This document shows, one piece after another, positions 1 through 36,489 of a DNA stretch of 64,000 nt. The stretch spans positions 141,134 through 205,133 of the forward strand of contig CAVZVA010000010.1 of NCBI GenBank assembly GCA_963778655.1. The letters are read 5' to 3'. Position numbers and translations under genes: made by a program. Each line of letters opens with the position of its first letter. Position 1 is the first letter of the stretch. The notes under the pieces are model-generated. The model saw only the letters and a list, made by a program, of their open reading frames with translations, searched no databases and was not told the origin of the DNA. The stretch comes from an uncultured delta proteobacterium (GTDB lineage: Bacteria; Myxococcota_A; Polyangia; Polyangiales; JAFGIB01).

Positions 1-164
1 ATGAGACAGTCCGCCGCCATCCCGACAGGTGAGGAGAGGAAGTCAAGGGCGGAGGAAAGCGCGCACGCCTCGAGCTGACAAGCAGCAACGGCGGCAGGGA
101 TTCGCGCACGGAGCTCGCCGTCGTCGACGACGGCAACCAGGGGCAGGGGGGGGCAGGGGCGCAT
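1..164 (-). CDS. response regulator receiver domain protein (partial, continues beyond window start)
   Basis: In-frame ATG at 164. Translation is MRPCPPLPLVAVVDDGELRARIPAAVAACQLEACALSSALDFLSSPVGMAADCL, showing the beta1 VxVVDD acidic-pocket pattern of REC domains. Cut by the window edge. Confidence 0.45.
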   Translation of the reverse strand, partial: MRPCPPLPLVAVVDDGELRARIPAAVAACQLEACALSSALDFLSSPVGMAADCL

Positions 165-371
165 GGCGCTTGGAAGTCTCGTCGCTCATCTCGGTGCGAC
201 GCGGCTTCGGTCTGGACCGCTCCCAGACTGCCTCATTCCGCCGCAACGCAACGTGATACTTGGTAGCAGCGCGCGTTCTTGCGTGCTGGCAAGGCGACCG
301 ACGACGACCTAACAATCCAAGCCTCGCGCCGCCCTGCATGGGCGTCAGTCGTTCGACTCGACGCTGCGGCG

Positions 372-2123
372 TCACAAATCGATCACGAGCTCTCGAGTCG
401 GTCGAGCGCAGCAAACCAAGAGATTGCCCTGCGCAGGGGCGTCGAGCGGCGCGGGCTCGTACGCCACCGTGCCGGAAATCAATCCGGCCTCGCAGGTGTG
501 ACACACCCCGGCGCGGCAAGACCAGCGAGCGCGGACGCCACACGCTTCGGCCAGCTCCAGGATGCTTCCATAGGCCGACGCCTTCCAGTGTGCGGCCACG
601 CCACTGCGGGCGAAGGACACAAGTGGACCGGTGTCGGCGTCCCCCGCAGGCGGATGCGGTGCTCGCGTTGCCGTACCGACCACACCCGGGGTCATCGACT
701 CGCCACCATCGAAGACTTCGGCATGGATGCGCGCGGGCTCCACGCCAATCACCGCAAGGGACCCTTTCGTCTCTTCCATAAAGCGAGTCGGCCCGCACAA
801 GTAGACCTCCGAGTCACGCGAGAGAGCGACCTCTTCGAAAACCGATCGCGACAGGTGACCGACGGCGTCGAAACCTTCACCTCTGACGTCGCCCGCGCCC
901 GGCCTGCTGTAGCAAATGAAGCTGCGGCCCTGCGGGAGCGCGCGCATGAGGCGGCGGACCTCGGCAGCAAAGGGATGATGCTGTCCATCGCGAGCACCAT
1001 GAAGCCACAAGACCTGCCGCGGCGAGCGGACGTCCGCGAGCGCGTGCAACATTGCCAGAACAGGCGTCGCGCCGATCCCTGCGCTGAGCAGCACCACCGG
1101 CCGCTCTCCGGATTGAAGGATGAAGCTGCCGCGCGGCGAGCTGACGTCGATCTCGTCACCCACCCGAACGTGGTCGCGCACGTAGGCGCCAGCCGCCCCG
1201 TTCTGCTCGATCTTCACGCTGATCCGGTAGCGTTCCGTCGAGCTGGGCCCGGAGAGCGAGTAGCTGCGAAAGAGCTGCGGGCGGCCCGGGGCTCCTCGAA
1301 AGCGCAAGACCACGTACTGTCCCGGCAGGGCGGCCAGCAGTGATCGATGGTCTGCGCTTCGGATCGTCAGCGAGACGACGTCTGCGGATTCGCGATCGAC
1401 CGCTGTGACCGCGACGGGCCGGAACCCTGGCGCAGCCGGATGCGCAGCAGCTGCCGGCACGAGTCCGGCATTGCCGCTCGCTTCACTCTGCAACAATGCC
1501 TCGAACGAGGCACGCCACCCAGGCGGCAGCGCTTCGATGCGCAGTGCACGCTCCAGCCGATCACGCTCGTGGTCGGGCGAATACAACAGCGCGTTGATCT
1601 CAGAGACAGTCATCCGCACCTTCGCCTCGCCCACCTTCACGATCTCGTCTCCTGCGCCCACGTCGCCCTCTCCAAGGACACGCAGGTAGAACCCCGGCCG
1701 CCCGCTGGAGGTCAACAGCGCTGGCATGCGCGGTTCGTTCAGGCGAAATCCGACGCGGTAGCATGTGACGCGAGGCTGGGTGACCTCGAACAGGGCGCTG
1801 CCGATCTGGTAGCGATCCCCGATGCATGCGGCGTCGTCAGGTAGTCCTTCGATCGTGAAGTTCTCGCCGAACTGACCATAGGCGAAGTCATGTCTGCCGA
1901 GGTGTTTTTCCCAGTATCGATAGGATTCGATCTGATAGACGAGCACCGCGCGATGCTCACCGCCGTGCCCGGTGAGGTCGCCTTGGCCGTCTGCCTCGAG
2001 ATTCGTTCTGCCGACGCGACACCGGTCATGCACCGGAGCCTTCCATACGCCGGTGTGGACGGTTCGCCCGTTCCAGGCAACGTCGCGTGGAAGGCCCACG
2101 TTCACAGAAAGCAGTCGCGCCAT
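372..2123 (-). CDS. MOSC domain / FNR-like flavin reductase / 2Fe-2S ferredoxin fusion protein
   Basis: ORF 372-2309; start placed at MARLLSVNVG (ATG 2123). N-terminal MOSC-like region (GDLTGHGGEHRAVLVY, FGENFTIEGL), RSYSLS and GIGATPVLAML flavin/NAD motifs, C-terminal CRAGVCHTC...LVCC 2Fe-2S motif. Confidence 0.85.
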   Translation of the reverse strand: MARLLSVNVGLPRDVAWNGRTVHTGVWKAPVHDRCRVGRTNLEADGQGDLTGHGGEHRAVLVYQIESYRYWEKHLGRHDFAYGQFGENFTIEGLPDDAACIGDRYQIGSALFEVTQPRVTCYRVGFRLNEPRMPALLTSSGRPGFYLRVLGEGDVGAGDEIVKVGEAKVRMTVSEINALLYSPDHERDRLERALRIEALPPGWRASFEALLQSEASGNAGLVPAAAAHPAAPGFRPVAVTAVDRESADVVSLTIRSADHRSLLAALPGQYVVLRFRGAPGRPQLFRSYSLSGPSSTERYRISVKIEQNGAAGAYVRDHVRVGDEIDVSSPRGSFILQSGERPVVLLSAGIGATPVLAMLHALADVRSPRQVLWLHGARDGQHHPFAAEVRRLMRALPQGRSFICYSRPGAGDVRGEGFDAVGHLSRSVFEEVALSRDSEVYLCGPTRFMEETKGSLAVIGVEPARIHAEVFDGGESMTPGVVGTATRAPHPPAGDADTGPLVSFARSGVAAHWKASAYGSILELAEACGVRARWSCRAGVCHTCEAGLISGTVAYEPAPLDAPAQGNLLVCCARPTRELVIDL

Positions 2124-2436
2124 ATTCGCTTCTCCAGCACCGGCGAAGCAGACGCATGCGCCCGCCCGGGGGTTCGCAATACCGCAGCCTCCGGTCGCTC
2201 GTCCTGCATGAGGAACCCGCCGATCGCCTTTGGTGTGAACGGGTTTCCCCGCCGACACGTTTCCATCTCGACCTAATGCGCAATTAGAACCGACCAGCGA
2301 TGATGGCAATGATACGAAGGTCCTCCCAGTTCAAGCCAAGGATTGGTACGGCCGGTGCCGGGCGCTCGATCGTCCACGATCACGTCTGCGTCACGAGCGA
2401 AGCGTGGCTAGCGCCTCATACGAACGGCCCTGTATG

Positions 2437-13766: not shown

Positions 13767-13943
13767 ATGGATCTGCAACCGCGCATCTTGGTGGCCGAGG
13801 ATGACGTCGATGTCCGCGGCGCTCTGGTCGATTGCTTGCGCCAGGGCGGCAACGACGTCGTGGACGTTCCGGACGGGGATCACGTCAGAGAGTATATCGA
13901 CGAATGCATGCTCTACGACGTGCCTCACAAGCGCGGGGGATAG
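13767..13943 (+). pseudogene. response regulator receiver N-terminal fragment
   Basis: MDLQPRILVAEDDVDVRGALVDCLRQGGNDVVDVPDGDHVREYIDE..., then stop after 58 codons at the junction with the intron relic. Confidence 0.5.
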
Positions 13944-13987
13944 TCGGGATGAAGAGCCGATTCGAGGGGGCCAGTCGGGATGAAGAG

Positions 13988-14583
13988 CCGAATGGAGCGC
14001 GGTGCAGTTGCAGGCGAGTTGACATATTGTGTTGACTGCGAAGCGTGCGCCGCGAGGCGCGAGGCGCGAGGAGGACCGATGAGCTGAAGACCTCATCACT
14101 GTCCGGGTCGGGCCGGGCATTAAGGGCGTCGTGAACCCCGCCTAGGTTGGAATGGCGGGCTGCAAAAGCCGAACGACGTCAACTTTGTGCGCTCTCCGAG
14201 CGGCTCACCGCAAGGAGGGATTCTTTCTCCCCTACTCGCCAACATCGCGCTGAGCACCATCGACGAGCGGTACGAACGCCATGCTTGGCCACGTGGGCTC
14301 GCCACCCGGCGCTCTCACGTGGGCCGACCGAGCAAAGCGCTCACCGAGCCCGACGACATTGCCCAGCGCGCGCTCGTCAATCGCGCCAACGACAGACGGC
14401 GCGGTTTTCCGGTCTTGATGCCGATTCGGTACGCCGATGACTTCATCATCTTGGTCAGCGAACCCGCCGGCGCCCCCGCTGGCGGGCAACTCGCGAACCA
14501 AGAGAAGGCCGCCTTGGCGGGGGGTCGACCCGAGTAAGGCGCCGCGTGCCCACTCTACAGAGCCTACCTTCCCCCGGCGGCAG
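13988..14583 (+). mobile_element. group II intron relic, copy 1 (lacks domain V)
   Basis: Shares 5' flank, GTGCG (14045), RT fragment, domain VI 3' strand ...CGCGTGCCCACTCTAC (ends 14558) and 25 nt of 3' flank with copy 2. Has a 7-nt tandem GCGCGAG duplication. Confidence 0.6.
14124..14537 (+). pseudogene. group II intron-type reverse transcriptase fragment (motifs 4-5 only)
   Basis: GSPQGGILSPLLANIALSTIDERY ... PIRYADDFIILVSEP. Motifs RT0-3, RT6-7 and the X/maturase domain are absent. Confidence 0.7.
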
Positions 14584-14740
14584 CGTGGATCGACACCGAG
14601 GCGTAAATCTGCGTCGTGTTCACGTCTTGGTGCCCGAGAATCGCCTGGATGTACCGGATGTCAGCACCGCCTTCGAGTAGCGCCGTCGCACAGGCGTGTC
14701 GGAACTGACGCACTACGCTTGCCGAGCTTCGCTTGATCGA
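14564..14740 (-). pseudogene. tyrosine recombinase (XerC/D-like) C-terminal fragment
   Basis: ...[39 protein letters not shown]... covers the box II region with catalytic Tyr. The upstream part is not recombinase-like. Confidence 0.55.
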
Positions 14741-14907
14741 CGTAGCCGCCCACAAGGTCGGTGGCCCTCGCGAGCGTCTATCGCCAGCTGCCAACGATGT
14801 CACTTGGTTCCAGCCCGAAGCGACCCTGTCCCTCGAACTTATTCGCGCAGCAAGTCCCCATCGAGGGATAGCCGGTCGCCGCAGGACTCGCGTAATAGCC
14901 TGGCGCA

Positions 14908-16254
14908 ATGCTGCAGTCTGCTCCCGGTGCAAGGGGTCTGCCACTCCTCGGTCACGTTCCCTGGATGATTCGAGATCCGATGCGCTTCCTCGCCGAGCTG
15001 TCGCGTCGCTACGGCGACGTGGCGGCGTTTCGCGTCGGCGCGCGGCCGCACGTGCTGATCAATCACCCGGAGCTGATCAGCCGCGTGCTGTGCAATCGCA
15101 GCTGCTCGAGAAGCGACGAGAGCCGCAAGGCGATGCGGTCGTTCCTCGGCGACGGACTACTCACGACCGAGGGGCCGCTGCACCTCCAGCGCCGGCGCAT
15201 GATGGCGCCCGCCTTTCATCGCGAACGCATTCGCGGCTACACCGAGCTGATGTGCGCCGAGACCTACGCCGACATCGCGGGCTGGCGACCCGACGAGAAG
15301 CGCGACCTGCACAAGGACATGATGCGCATCACGTTCACGATCGTTACGCGGGCGCTGTTCAGCGCCGACAGGCGCGACGACGCGCGGGAGGTCGAAAAAG
15401 CGCTCGCGGTGATCATGCCGTGGGCGATCCTCGGCGCCGCCATGGCGAACGTGCTTCCGTCGCTGCCGGTGATCTACCCGCTGCGCGCCAAGGCGGCGAT
15501 CGCGCGGCTCAACCGCCTGGTGCTGGAGATCGTGGCGCACCGGCGCGCGGAGGGCGGCGACCGCGGCGACCTGCTCTCGATGCTGCTCGCGACACGCGAC
15601 GAGGACGGAAGCGCGCTCACCGACCAGGACATCTGCGACGAAGCGCTCACGCTCATATTCGCCGGCCACGACACGACCGCCAACACGCTGACCTGGGCGT
15701 GGCACCTGCTGACGGAGAATCCGGAGGTGCAGGAGGCGCTGTACCAGGAAGTGCAGCGCGTGGTCGGCGAGCGCGCGCTGACCCCCGAGGACCTGCCCAA
15801 ACTTCCGCTCGCGGAGCAAGTCATCCACGAGACACTGCGCTTGTACCCGGTCATATGGATCGGCGACCGCGTGCCGGAACAAGACATCGAGCTCGGCGGC
15901 TATGCGATACCCAAGGGCATCGGAGTCGTATTCTCGATGTACCTCATACAGCGCGACGAGCGCTTCTTCCCCGATCCGGAACGCTTCGACCCGGCGCGGT
16001 TCAGTCCCGCGCGCATCGGCAGCATCCCCGACGGCGCCTATTTCCCATTCGGCGCAGGCGTTCACAAGTGCATCGGCAGCACCTTCGCCCTGATGGAGGC
16101 GCGCATCATCCTGGCAGCGATGGTGCAGCGCTTCGCCATCTCCGCTATCCCCGGACACAAGGTGCGCAAAACCCGCGAACTCGTCATGACCCCTGTCGGC
16201 GGCTTCCCTGTCAGGCTCAGCGCGCGCAAGACTGGCGTCATGCGTTCGGCGTGA
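14908..16254 (+). CDS. cytochrome P450
   Basis: Heme-binding [21 protein letters not shown]-helix, AGHDTT I-helix motif. 448 aa. Confidence 0.9.
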
Positions 16255-34959: not shown

Positions 34960-35274
34960 TCAGGCAGCTTCGATCTCGACCTTGTATTTCAGCCCAGCCG
35001 CGTCCAGCTCGCCCTGAATGGCGAGCTTGACAAGCACGGGCTCGGGGTACCCGAGAACCCGAGCCCACTTGGCTGCGCGTTCGGGGCTCACGACCTTGCG
35101 GCCCTTCTCGACGTCGCACAGATGCGACTTCGAGACCCCAAGCTTTTTGGCACACTCATCTTGGGAGAGCTCATCGCTCTTGCGGATCGACTCTATGGCC
35201 CGACCCAGGGTGAGCGGGCCGCCGGCAATCTTCTCCAGCGTCTTGATCGCCTCGGACTTCTTGGCCTTGCGCAT
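34960..35274 (-). CDS. XRE-family HTH antitoxin (HigA-like)
   Basis: MRKAKKSEA...SDELSQDECAKKLGVSKSHLCDVEKGRKVVSPERAAKWARVLG. 104 aa. Lies 11 nt downstream of the toxin gene. Confidence 0.75.
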   Translation of the reverse strand: MRKAKKSEAIKTLEKIAGGPLTLGRAIESIRKSDELSQDECAKKLGVSKSHLCDVEKGRKVVSPERAAKWARVLGYPEPVLVKLAIQGELDAAGLKYKVEIEAA

Positions 35275-35285
35275 GGGCACCTCCA

Positions 35286-35564
35286 TCAATACTCGTGCTT
35301 GTTGACTTCCTCGACCGACACGAACTTCGCCGTGTCCTCCTTGATCTCGTAGATGGCGCGGTACGCCTTGCTCGAGCGGATGGACCGCTGACCGGCCCGG
35401 TCGCCTTTCAGAGGCTCGTCGTGGTAGCCGGGCACCTTGCGTACTTCCTCCAGGCCATCGTGCTCGACCGCCGCCACCCAGATCATCGAGTTGTCCACGA
35501 TGTGGCGAGGCAGCTTCCGAAGCTGCTTGGCCGCGAGCCTCGTGATCTCGACCCGCCGGACCAT
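35286..35564 (-). CDS. RelE/ParE-family toxin (HigB-like gene order, toxin first)
   Basis: 92 aa. ...LPRHIVDNSMIWVAAVEHDGLEEVRKVPGYHDEPLKGDRAGQRSIRSSKAYRAIYEI. Confidence 0.7.
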   Translation of the reverse strand: MVRRVEITRLAAKQLRKLPRHIVDNSMIWVAAVEHDGLEEVRKVPGYHDEPLKGDRAGQRSIRSSKAYRAIYEIKEDTAKFVSVEEVNKHEY

Positions 35565-35851
35565 CGGTTCCAGCGGTACACCCGTGAGGTGAACCTGTCA
35601 ACGTGTGCGGTTCGAGCGCACGTTCACGAGCACGCTCAAGTCGGCCGCGGGTACGATTGGAGGCAGTCGCGGATGGGCCGGACAAGGGCGCTGGGCGGGG
35701 GCCGGACGTGGACGTCCAGCGCCCGAATGGAGCGCGGTGCAGTTGCAGGCGAGTTGACATATTGTGTTGACTGCGAAGCGTGCGCCGCGAGGCGCGAGGA
35801 GGACCGATGAGCTGAAGACCTCATCACTGTCCGGGTCGGGCCGGGCATTAA

Positions 35852-36215
35852 GGGCGTCGTGAACCCCGCCTAGGTTGGAACGGCGGGCTGCAAAAGCCGA
35901 ACGACGTCAACTTTGTGCGCTCTCCGAGCGGCTCACCGCAAGGAGGGATTCTTTCTCCCCTACTCGCCAACATCGCGCTGAGCACCATCGACGAGCGGTA
36001 CGAACGCCATGCTTGGCCACGTGGGCTCGCCACCCGGCGCTCTCACGTGGGCCGACCGAGCAAAGCGCTCACCGAGCCCGACGACATTGCCCAGCGCGCG
36101 CTCGTCAATCGCGCCAACGACAGACGGCGCGGTTTTCCGATCTTGATGCCGATTCGGTACGCCGATGACTTCATCATCTTGGTCAGCGAACCCGCCGGCG
36201 CCCCCGCTGGCGGGC
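35852..36215 (+). pseudogene. group II intron-type reverse transcriptase fragment (motifs 4-5 only)
   Basis: Near-identical to 14124-14490: GSPQGGILSPLLANIAL ... IRYADDFIILVSEPAGAPAGGQ. Confidence 0.7.
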
Positions 36216-36329
36216 AATGCTCAGATGGCGCGATGGGGCGACCCGTCCTTTCATCATGGCAAGCATTCGGGTCCGGCCCTACCGGTTCGCTTGGCAGACG
36301 ACCCCCGACTTTGCGTCAACATCTGCGGA

Positions 36330-36429
36330 GAGCCCGGTGCGTAACGAATGGCGCACGCCGGGTTCGGTGAGGGGCACGCGCAAACCTGCTCGGGGTCGAC
36401 CCGAGTAAGGCGCCGCGTGCCCACTCTAC
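36330..36429 (+). ncRNA. group II intron domain V (36330-36365) and domain VI (36366-36429)
   Basis: DV: GAGCCCGGU pairs with GCCGGGUUC (AGC triad, G-U at position 3), upper helix GCGU/GCGC, AC bulge. DVI: GAGGGGCACGCG...CGCGUGCCC[A]CUC with the bulged A at 36423, 7 nt from the 3' end. Confidence 0.7.
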
Positions 36430-36489
36430 AGAGCCTACCTTCCCCCGGCGGCAGGATCGGAGCGACTCGTGCTGCTGTGCAGGTGAGGC

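Follow-up and report, generated by a model that had tools for sequence, protein, structure and literature searches.

RmInt1 of Sinorhizobium meliloti, like the intron that is the subject of this work, encodes an endonuclease-less intron-encoded protein (IEP), homes into a repeated, non-essential element, is present in many copies per genome, and decays by truncation and deletion into fragments that persist. Fragments and inactive copies of RmInt1 are documented (Molina-Sanchez & Toro 2015, PMC4496777; Toro et al. 2014, PMC4181065), the abstract of PMC4496777 giving a picture of 'selection-driven extinction', and 'extinction' of group II introns is also the subject of an enterobacterial study (PMC3522654). 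RmInt1 differs from the present intron in using the gene of an IS630-family transposase as its target, whereas the target here is a non-coding repeat of ~100 nt. It also loses its 3' terminus, whereas the deletions here are mainly internal and no intact copy is present in the assembly. The IEPs of the best S. meliloti plasmid matches are only ~42-43% identical to ours.

Among solved structures, the best match to the IEP described here is LtrA, the protein of Ll.LtrB (group IIA, mitochondrial-like class), at 157 bits, the alignment running unbroken through query residues 13-314 and so across the long spacer that separates reverse transcriptase (RT) motifs 4 and 5. LtrA has a C-terminal DNA-binding/endonuclease domain, however, which the IEP here is without. 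With the TeI4h RT (141 bits) and the GsI-IIC RT (135 bits) close behind, we take the PDB and plasmid matches to indicate LtrA-like leanings only, as far as the class of the intron is concerned.

The nearest relatives by sequence are uncharacterised MAG introns and an intron of Sorangium, with 57-69% identity in the IEP, while the best plasmid matches reach 42-48%. The MAG introns belong to Rhodothermales (69%), Gammaproteobacteria/Steroidobacteraceae (64-65%) and Myxococcales (57-62%), and the IEP of the Sorangium cellulosum So0157-2 intron is 58% identical; a literature search for a named class of Sorangium introns found none. The full set comprises 24 RT relatives from other phyla (42-69% identity), and the domain I-III RNA of relatives can be aligned with that of our intron (68-78%). 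Relatives' IEPs are alike in architecture (RVT_1 plus GIIM, 515 aa in the L019 intron) and their copies look intact, whereas the copies here are all broken and lie in a repeat that a search of 40 related genomes did not find.

The assembly concerned, that of an uncultured delta proteobacterium, comprises 7.09 Mb in 12 contigs at 70% G+C. We analysed a 64-kb stretch of it (C10:141134-205133, hereafter the window), in which a reading made from the sequence alone, the sequence-only reading, had proposed two differently deleted copies of one group II intron relic. Our analysis confirms that copy 1 and copy 2 stem from one bacterial group II intron and that both are decayed, with internal deletions, and non-functional. 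The best overall explanation, which we hold with high confidence, is that they are two dead relics of one endonuclease-less, ORF-containing group II intron that homes into a repeat.

Two window copies of one intron

The two copies lie 21.7 kb apart (Table 1). Their likeness is confined to 13988-14583 and 35723-36454, and the flanks outside these limits are unrelated. The shared elements that had been read from the sequence are all present: 57 bp upstream of the intron (13988-14044 and 35723-35779) are 100% identical, GTGCG stands at 14045 and 35780, and 25 nt on the 3' side of the intron are common to both (14559-14583 and 36430-36454), with the entire 3' block identical at 63 of 63 positions. 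Over 489 aligned columns the copies differ by two substitutions (14152 T/C, 14411 G/A) and one 7-nt CGCGAGG unit, a match that is far beyond chance. Within the shared block the central part is different, with 34 nt in copy 1 (reference 1584-1617, in the coordinates defined below) against 175 nt in copy 2 (reference 2037-2211). The likeness that seems to extend into the 45 nt before this block (GGGGGCC...) has no significance, since 195 of 2000 shuffles (~10%) reach the same local alignment score.

Three CGCGAGG units stand in tandem at the extreme 5' end of the copy 1 intron (14051-14071), against two in copy 2 and in two other genomic copies, L001 and L003. The extra unit of copy 1 is a product of replication slippage.

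Table 1. Coordinates of the intron copies, their parts, the host repeat and the flanking genes. Unprefixed positions are those of the window; reference positions are those of the 2249-nt working reference.
Feature	Location	Strand	Extent and evidence
Response-regulator receiver, N-terminal stub, ~45 aa	13767-13943	+	Pfam Response_reg positions 1-40/111, E = 0.023 (weak)
Stub of a second repeat copy (ATTCGAG variant), positions 1-29	13938-13966	+	then spacer GGGGCC; nhmmer C10:155071-155099, E = 0.0018
Copy 1 5' exon, repeat positions 5-76	13973-14044	+	AATGGAG variant; IBS1 CGAAGC 14039-14044; nhmmer, BLAST, empty sites
Copy 1 intron	14045-14558	+	514 nt; reference 1-133 + 1278-1617 + 2212-2249
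Copy 1 intron 5' end	14045-14183	+	reference 1-133 and an additional CGCGAGG; blastn on the 2249-nt reference
Copy 1 RT fragment	14184-14523	+	reference 1278-1617, motifs 4-5 plus 34 nt absent from copy 2; 98.8% over 340 nt; RVT_1
Copy 1 3' half of domain VI	14521-14558	+	reference 2212-2249; 38/38 identical; GGG microhomology at junction 14521-14523
Copy 1 3' exon, repeat positions 77-101	14559-14583	+	empty sites; 63/63 3' block
Tyrosine recombinase, C-terminal ~40 aa	ORF 14564-14944, residues 80-117 (14594-14707)	-	Phage_integrase positions 131-168/172, E = 8e-12
Copy 2 5' exon, repeat positions 20-76	35723-35779	+	first 19 nt of repeat missing; nhmmer, alignment
Copy 2 intron	35780-36429	+	650 nt; reference 1-133 + 1278-1583 + 2037-2249
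Copy 2 intron 5' end	35780-35911	+	reference 1-133; blastn
Copy 2 RT fragment	35912-36217	+	reference 1278-1583, motifs 4-5; 98.4% over 306 nt; RVT_1
Copy 2 IEP ORF end, domain V (36330-36365) and domain VI (bulged A 36423)	36217-36429	+	reference 2037-2249; 99.1% over 213 nt; RF00029; fold
Copy 2 3' exon, repeat positions 77-101	36430-36454	+	empty sites, nhmmer
First deletion, both copies	reference 134-1277		1144 nt, base-for-base identical; microhomology 0-1 nt
Second deletion, copy 1 only	reference ~1618-2211		GGG microhomology
Second deletion, copy 2 only	reference 1584-2036		~1 nt microhomology
L001	C3:323065-324933		complete 5' part: 557 nt of domains I-III and domain IV start, then IEP ORF
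L002	C9:642296-644132		without first 165 nt; 236-nt deletion over ORF start; rest of IEP including maturase domain, and DV/DVI at 45.4 bits
L003	C9	-	tandem arrangement, heavily deleted
Intron stub	C10:215856-215931		5' exon and ~17 nt of intron only

Other copies in the genome and the deletion map

BLAST of both copies against the assembly revealed four loci beyond those in the window, making six insertions in the whole assembly by tblastn and blastn, none of them intact. The search for a parent that the sequence-only reading had recommended thus delivered longer genomic copies on which the deletion endpoints could be mapped, but all copies found are defective. Given an assembly completeness of 97%, an intact copy could exist in an unassembled part of the genome.

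The longest 5' part is that of L001, whose IEP ORF runs from RT0 for 439 aa and ends just after the start of the X domain. L002 and L003, at two loci, have in common the 236-nt deletion, which lies in domain IV. We joined L001 3066-4934 to L002 3754-4133 to obtain a 2249-nt working reference; as this is stitched from two defective copies, one for the 5' and one for the 3' part, with an 11-nt indel between them, its absolute coordinates are approximate. The full-length parent would have been ~2.25 kb long, and its IEP, of ~550 aa, would have comprised RT0-7 and a maturase/X domain and ended in a short C-terminal tail.

On this reference, both window copies carry the same first deletion, which takes out EBS1 (294-299), most of domain I, domains II-III and RT0-3. 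It had been noticed that only ~135 nt separate GTGCG from RT motif 4, and the map accounts for this, with intron 1-133 joined directly to reference 1278. Each copy then has a second deletion of its own, and the two overlap without being nested: reference 1584-1617 is found in copy 1 alone, and reference 2037-2211 (the ORF end, domain V (DV) and the 5' half of domain VI (DVI)) in copy 2 alone. The blastn map and the junction sequences bear out the earlier proposal that each copy retains a piece that the other has lost, through independent second deletions after a common one. Neither relic is predicted to be able to splice, move or make protein.

Some of the other copies have features of their own. 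The 3' truncation of L001 adjoins a truncated ORF (L001 4935-5450), a candidate HAD-type hydrolase by eye, and the 5'-truncated L002 lies ~800 nt from a 400-aa ORF (308-1510, - strand), by eye a candidate IS66-family transposase. L003 2750-3660 (-) (G000:C9:1403750-1404660) holds three head-to-tail intron units with exact ...CTAC/GTGCG... junctions (at 2930/2929 and 2807/2806) and no exon between them. Unit 1 consists of intron 1-510, 747-~775 and ~2102-2249, unit 2 of intron 1-12 and ~2128-2249, and unit 3 of intron 1-54. This arrangement is compatible with repeated homing into an occupied 5' junction, with end-to-end template switching by the RT, or with cDNA of an intron circle. Head-to-tail circle junctions have been described for Ll.LtrB (PMC4478347).

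The RT and RNA domains are those of a group II intron

The ORF fragments of copy 1 (14187-14537, 116 aa) and copy 2 (35915-36370, 151 aa) match the Pfam RVT_1 profile at positions 118-163 of 205, which are motifs 4-5, the very motifs that had been recognised in both copies by eye. These matches (E = 5e-5 and 1.6e-4, respectively) score under the gathering threshold because the window ORFs are mere fragments. On TIGR04416 (group II intron RT/maturase) the L001 ORF reaches 275 bits and the L002 ORF 281 bits, just below the cut-off of 300 because both are truncated, and L002 has a GIIM maturase domain at 61 bits. No endonuclease domain was found in the IEP, and no HNH match. The sister copies therefore have what is expected of a group II intron, an IEP with RT and X/GIIM domains placed in domain IV; the window copies retain motifs 4-5 only.

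A different reading would be that the RT fragment comes from a retron, DGR, Abi or Drt defence RT and that the match to DV and DVI is spurious. The L001 and L002 ORFs do have weak side-matches to such models (Drt3a, Drt2 and retron, 16-35 bits), including Drt3a at 33-35 bits and the retron St85 RT at 18-20 bits. The TIGR04416 scores together with GIIM, the ranking of LtrA, TeI4h and GsI-IIC as top structures, the DV/DVI in three further copies and the existence of exact empty sites (see below) all speak against it, however, and we consider this reading refuted. The RTs are group II intron RT/maturases, as the sequence-only reading had supposed.

In copy 2, the covariance model Rfam RF00029 matches 36328-36429, where domains V and VI had been placed, at 40.3 bits, just 0.3 bits above the gathering score of 40; it is the sole group II hit in the 64-kb window at gathering thresholds. 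In the RNAfold structure, 36330-36365 form the DV hairpin and the DVI stem has just one bulged A. This is A36423, the base that had been proposed, and the last base follows 6 nt after it. The z-score of this fold is -4.7, with none of 200 shuffles as good. To call this domain V 'textbook', as was done, is slightly generous: the hairpin is there, but it has a 2-nt irregularity in the upper stem and a GAAU tetraloop (36346-36349). The longer copies have GAAA, and DV/DVI scores 45.4 bits on RF00029 in three further copies of the genome; the GAAU of copy 2 is a decay mutation in the loop.

The hallmarks expected of the 3' part of a group II intron, a DV with AGC triad and 2-nt bulge and a DVI with a branch-point A 7-8 nt from the 3' end, are present in copy 2, going by the RF00029 match and the bulged A of the fold. 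Both copies have the 5' GUGYG, as GTGCG, at the point where intron-free repeats run on into the 3' exon. The deletion map confirms that copy 1 is without domain V, DV and the 5' half of DVI having been lost. Of the Rfam group-II-D1D4 models, which cover some subclasses only, the best on the 5' part of L001 was RF01998 at 23 bits (cut-off 35, E = 0.87).

The host repeat and the intron boundaries

GTGCG is preceded by 72 nt, and ...CTAC followed by 25 nt, that together make up one repeat of ~100 nt, with the layout GGATAGTCGGGATGAAGAGCCGAWTSGAGCGCGGYGCWGTTGCAGGCGAGTTGACATATT...TGCGAAGC/AGAGCCTACCTTCCCCCGGCGGCAG (the slash marks the insertion point). Three intron-free copies of this repeat, at C3:307142-307241, C2:84892-84990(-) and C10:96988-97089, read straight across the insertion point, with the junction ...GCGAAGC/AGAGCC... 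in two of them and ...GCACAGT/AGAGCC... in the third. Because these unoccupied target alleles read through, the GTGCG...CTAC boundaries of the intron are proven. It had been suggested that the shared flanks of the two window copies might be the homing site of the intron; the insertion point does lie in them, with the refinement that they are an interspersed ~100-nt repeat that occurs without the intron too.

There are ~8-10 repeat sites, full or partial, on four contigs, five or six of which hold intron material. This count combines eight stretches found by nhmmer at E <= 1e-12 and a weak 29-nt stub with the partial repeats at C9:644 and C9:1404. All sites are intergenic and lie beside unrelated genes. 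The repeat gave no match outside the source genome in 40 related genomes. A synteny search of the same-genus genome G001 for a repeat-free orthologous site returned matches of only 29-32 nt, G001 being too divergent. The 32 nt right after an empty repeat (L010 1602-1633, G000:C10:97089-97120) match G001:C293 at 97%, with no alignment of the genes on either side, and may represent a further short motif that is conserved or repeated.

Rfam searches of three empty repeat loci (E <= 5) gave no match at the repeat, and the fold that RNAalifold derived from four repeat copies was weak and lacked compensatory pairs, which leaves a structured RNA gene unsupported. The repeat does have the many dispersed copies in unrelated contexts that characterise a MITE. 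The combination of terminal inverted repeats with target-site duplications by which a MITE is recognised was not found, with no target-site duplication at seven repeat copies and only weak inverted similarity of ~10-12 nt between the ends (GTCGGGATGAAG vs CTTCCCCCGGC), without compensatory changes. All-against-all BLAST of the 4-kb flanks of all repeat sites showed no larger mobile element, only two unrelated paralogous gene pairs.

The flanking gene fragments adjoin the repeat. The tyrosine recombinase remnant that had been reported on the opposite strand is supported by the Phage_integrase match, and its last codons do lie in the common 25 nt, so that the stop of its ORF is inside the host repeat. 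That copy 1 truncates a response-regulator gene, as had been claimed, is not shown: there is a stub consistent with it, but it is the repeat, and not the intron, that adjoins the gene fragments.

At the copy 2 locus, the 266-aa ORF 34960-35760 (-) is for the most part an artefact, which begins at an ATG within the host repeat. The real protein in it, of XRE/HTH_3 type (E = 2e-9), is limited to the C-terminal ~80 aa and forms a pair with the ORF of a ParE-type toxin (35286-35564, -) at E = 1.3e-4 and 22.9 bits against a cut-off of 23.

Recognition of the homing site

Aligned on the insertion point, the target reads ...ACAYAWT-N8-TGCGAAGC/AGAGCC..., which in the window is GTTGACATATTGTGTTGACTGCGAAGC/AGAGCC. 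In the 5'-complete copy we located EBS1 as GUUUCG (reference 294-299), in the 11-nt loop of a hairpin (289-303 region), where it pairs with exon CGAAGC over positions -1 to -6 or more. Exact-string matching located neither EBS1 nor EBS2; EBS1 emerged on admitting G-U pairs, and covariation bore it out. In a MAFFT alignment the same loop is complementary to the intron's own exon in 19 relatives, with pairs (EBS1:exon) such as GCUUCG:CGAAGU, GAUUUUG:CAAGAUU, AAUGCC:GGCAUU, GGGUCUA:UAGAUCC and AUCCGU:ACGGAU. Pairing runs anchored at exon -1 average 5.1 in cognate and 3.5 in mismatched combinations, and none of 20,000 permutations reached the observed value. EBS2 and EBS3/delta were looked for, with no convincing location. 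Read by eye, a U immediately 5' of EBS1 might be the partner of the +1 A, which would be a delta-delta' interaction of the IIA type and a likeness to Ll.LtrB. The EBS1 loop falls within the 1144-nt deletion common to the window copies.

The upstream ACAYAWT box, ~17-23 nt from the insertion point, is presumably contacted by the protein, following the general model of group II target recognition. The pattern ACAYAWT-N8-TGCGAAGY is found in the occupied and empty sites of this genome, bar the divergent empty copy C10:96988, and also at the occupied sites of the L017, L019 and L049 introns, whose IEPs are 64-65% identical to ours and whose target is ACATAAT-N8-TGCGAAGT/. A pattern scan for the target followed by GTGCG across 185,579 species gave 11 loci, of which only L045 (which is the L019 locus) and L049 are clearly this intron; several of the others are chance matches or possible stubs.

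The target of these introns (L017 2192-2218, L019 2191-2217, L049) is AT-rich, TTTAACATAATATACATTATGCGAAGT/, and has the same layout as the G+C-rich target here. At L047, L048 and L054 the same target is followed by GTGCG and then by non-intron sequence; these may be stubs or native sequence.

How the relic came to occupy two loci

The history that we propose has four steps. In it, a full-length intron retrohomed into one copy of the repeat (i), and the 1144-nt internal deletion (134-1277) then killed both ribozyme and protein (ii). The unit of repeat plus relic was put at the second locus by a DNA-level process, either gene conversion or movement or duplication of the host repeat (iii), after which copy 1 lost ~1618-2211 and copy 2 lost 1584-2036 in separate second deletions (iv). 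Steps (i), (ii) and (iv) follow directly from the mapped sequence, while the mechanism of step (iii), be it gene conversion or repeat movement or duplication, is one that we infer. That the process acted on DNA is argued by the junction itself: without EBS1, most of domain I and domains II-III, all of which lie in 134-1277, the relic RNA could not reverse-splice, so that an identical junction at two loci means copying as DNA, retrohoming being impossible. The exon parts speak for it too, with no difference between copies 1 and 2 but only 83-90% identity of the empty-site repeats to the joined query.

For the same reason we give little credit to mobilisation in trans, in which the RT of an intact copy would have moved the deleted RNA and the relics would be independent retrohomings of a 'mini-intron'. 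Other group II introns without their ORF are known to be mobilised in trans, and this could apply to the 236-nt deletion of L002 and L003, for which its position in domain IV makes this route possible. For the window copies it is very improbable, and effectively refuted by the deletion map, since the 134-1277 deletion precludes reverse-splicing; moreover, the assembly holds no intact source of RT.

There remain two routes at the level of DNA. In the first, both loci would have been occupied by independent retrohomings, and the deleted allele would have overwritten the other by gene conversion. Several dispersed copies at 98-100% identity offer ample homology for this, L002 and L003 likewise share a deletion at two loci, and no new element needs to be invoked. 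Gene conversion alone does not account for the exact stop of identity where the repeat ends on its 3' side, or for an exon variant common to the copies, although tracts bounded by the end of homology would give this pattern. We consider this route quite possible, if somewhat short of probable.

In the second, the ~100-nt repeat would itself be a MITE-like mobile element that carried the deleted relic as cargo to the second locus and to a third, the stub at C10:215856-215931. The exon parts are informative here, being 100% identical between copies 1 and 2 and 99% in the C10:215856 stub, while the three empty-site repeats are only 83-90% identical to the joined query. The exon variant CCGAATGGAG is thus 99-100% identical at three C10 loci against 83-90% for the three empty sites, the shared sequence of every copy stops precisely where the repeat has its 3' end, the intergenic contexts are unrelated, and the ends have weak inverted similarity. 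On the other hand, target-site duplications were not seen, the inverted similarity of the ends is weak and lacks compensatory change, the first 19 nt of the repeat are absent in copy 2, the ~8-10 sites are few with none in the 40 related genomes, and no cognate transposase was identified. We are doubtful of this route, while granting it a real chance.

A further suggestion, which we think unlikely, is that this intron lineage has the repeat for its dedicated landing pad and that the repeat, as a small mobile element not described before, moves together with dead relics. The C9 junctions and the relics would in that case be DNA fossils of unusual mobility routes, such as repeated homing into occupied sites, template switching by the RT or cDNA copies of intron circles. 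The 64-65%-identical introns in Gammaproteobacteria use a related motif, ACAYAWT-N8-TGCGAAGY.

Significance

The intron is a new, uncharacterised lineage whose decay behaviour is of a well-documented kind. What is added here is a map onto a parent, boundaries proven through empty sites, a defined homing site and the proposed spread at the level of DNA. For annotation, both stretches, their ORF fragments and the artefactual flanking ORFs (e.g. 34960-35760, -) should be treated as group II intron relics in a repeat, and not as genes.

With none of six insertions intact, this genome fits the extinction model put forward for RmInt1 and the enterobacterial introns, and it offers a clear case, mapped in full, of a bacterial retroelement in its decay phase. 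The homing site is precisely defined and conserved across phyla, and a ribozyme-dead relic at two loci implies that intron remnants spread at the level of DNA.
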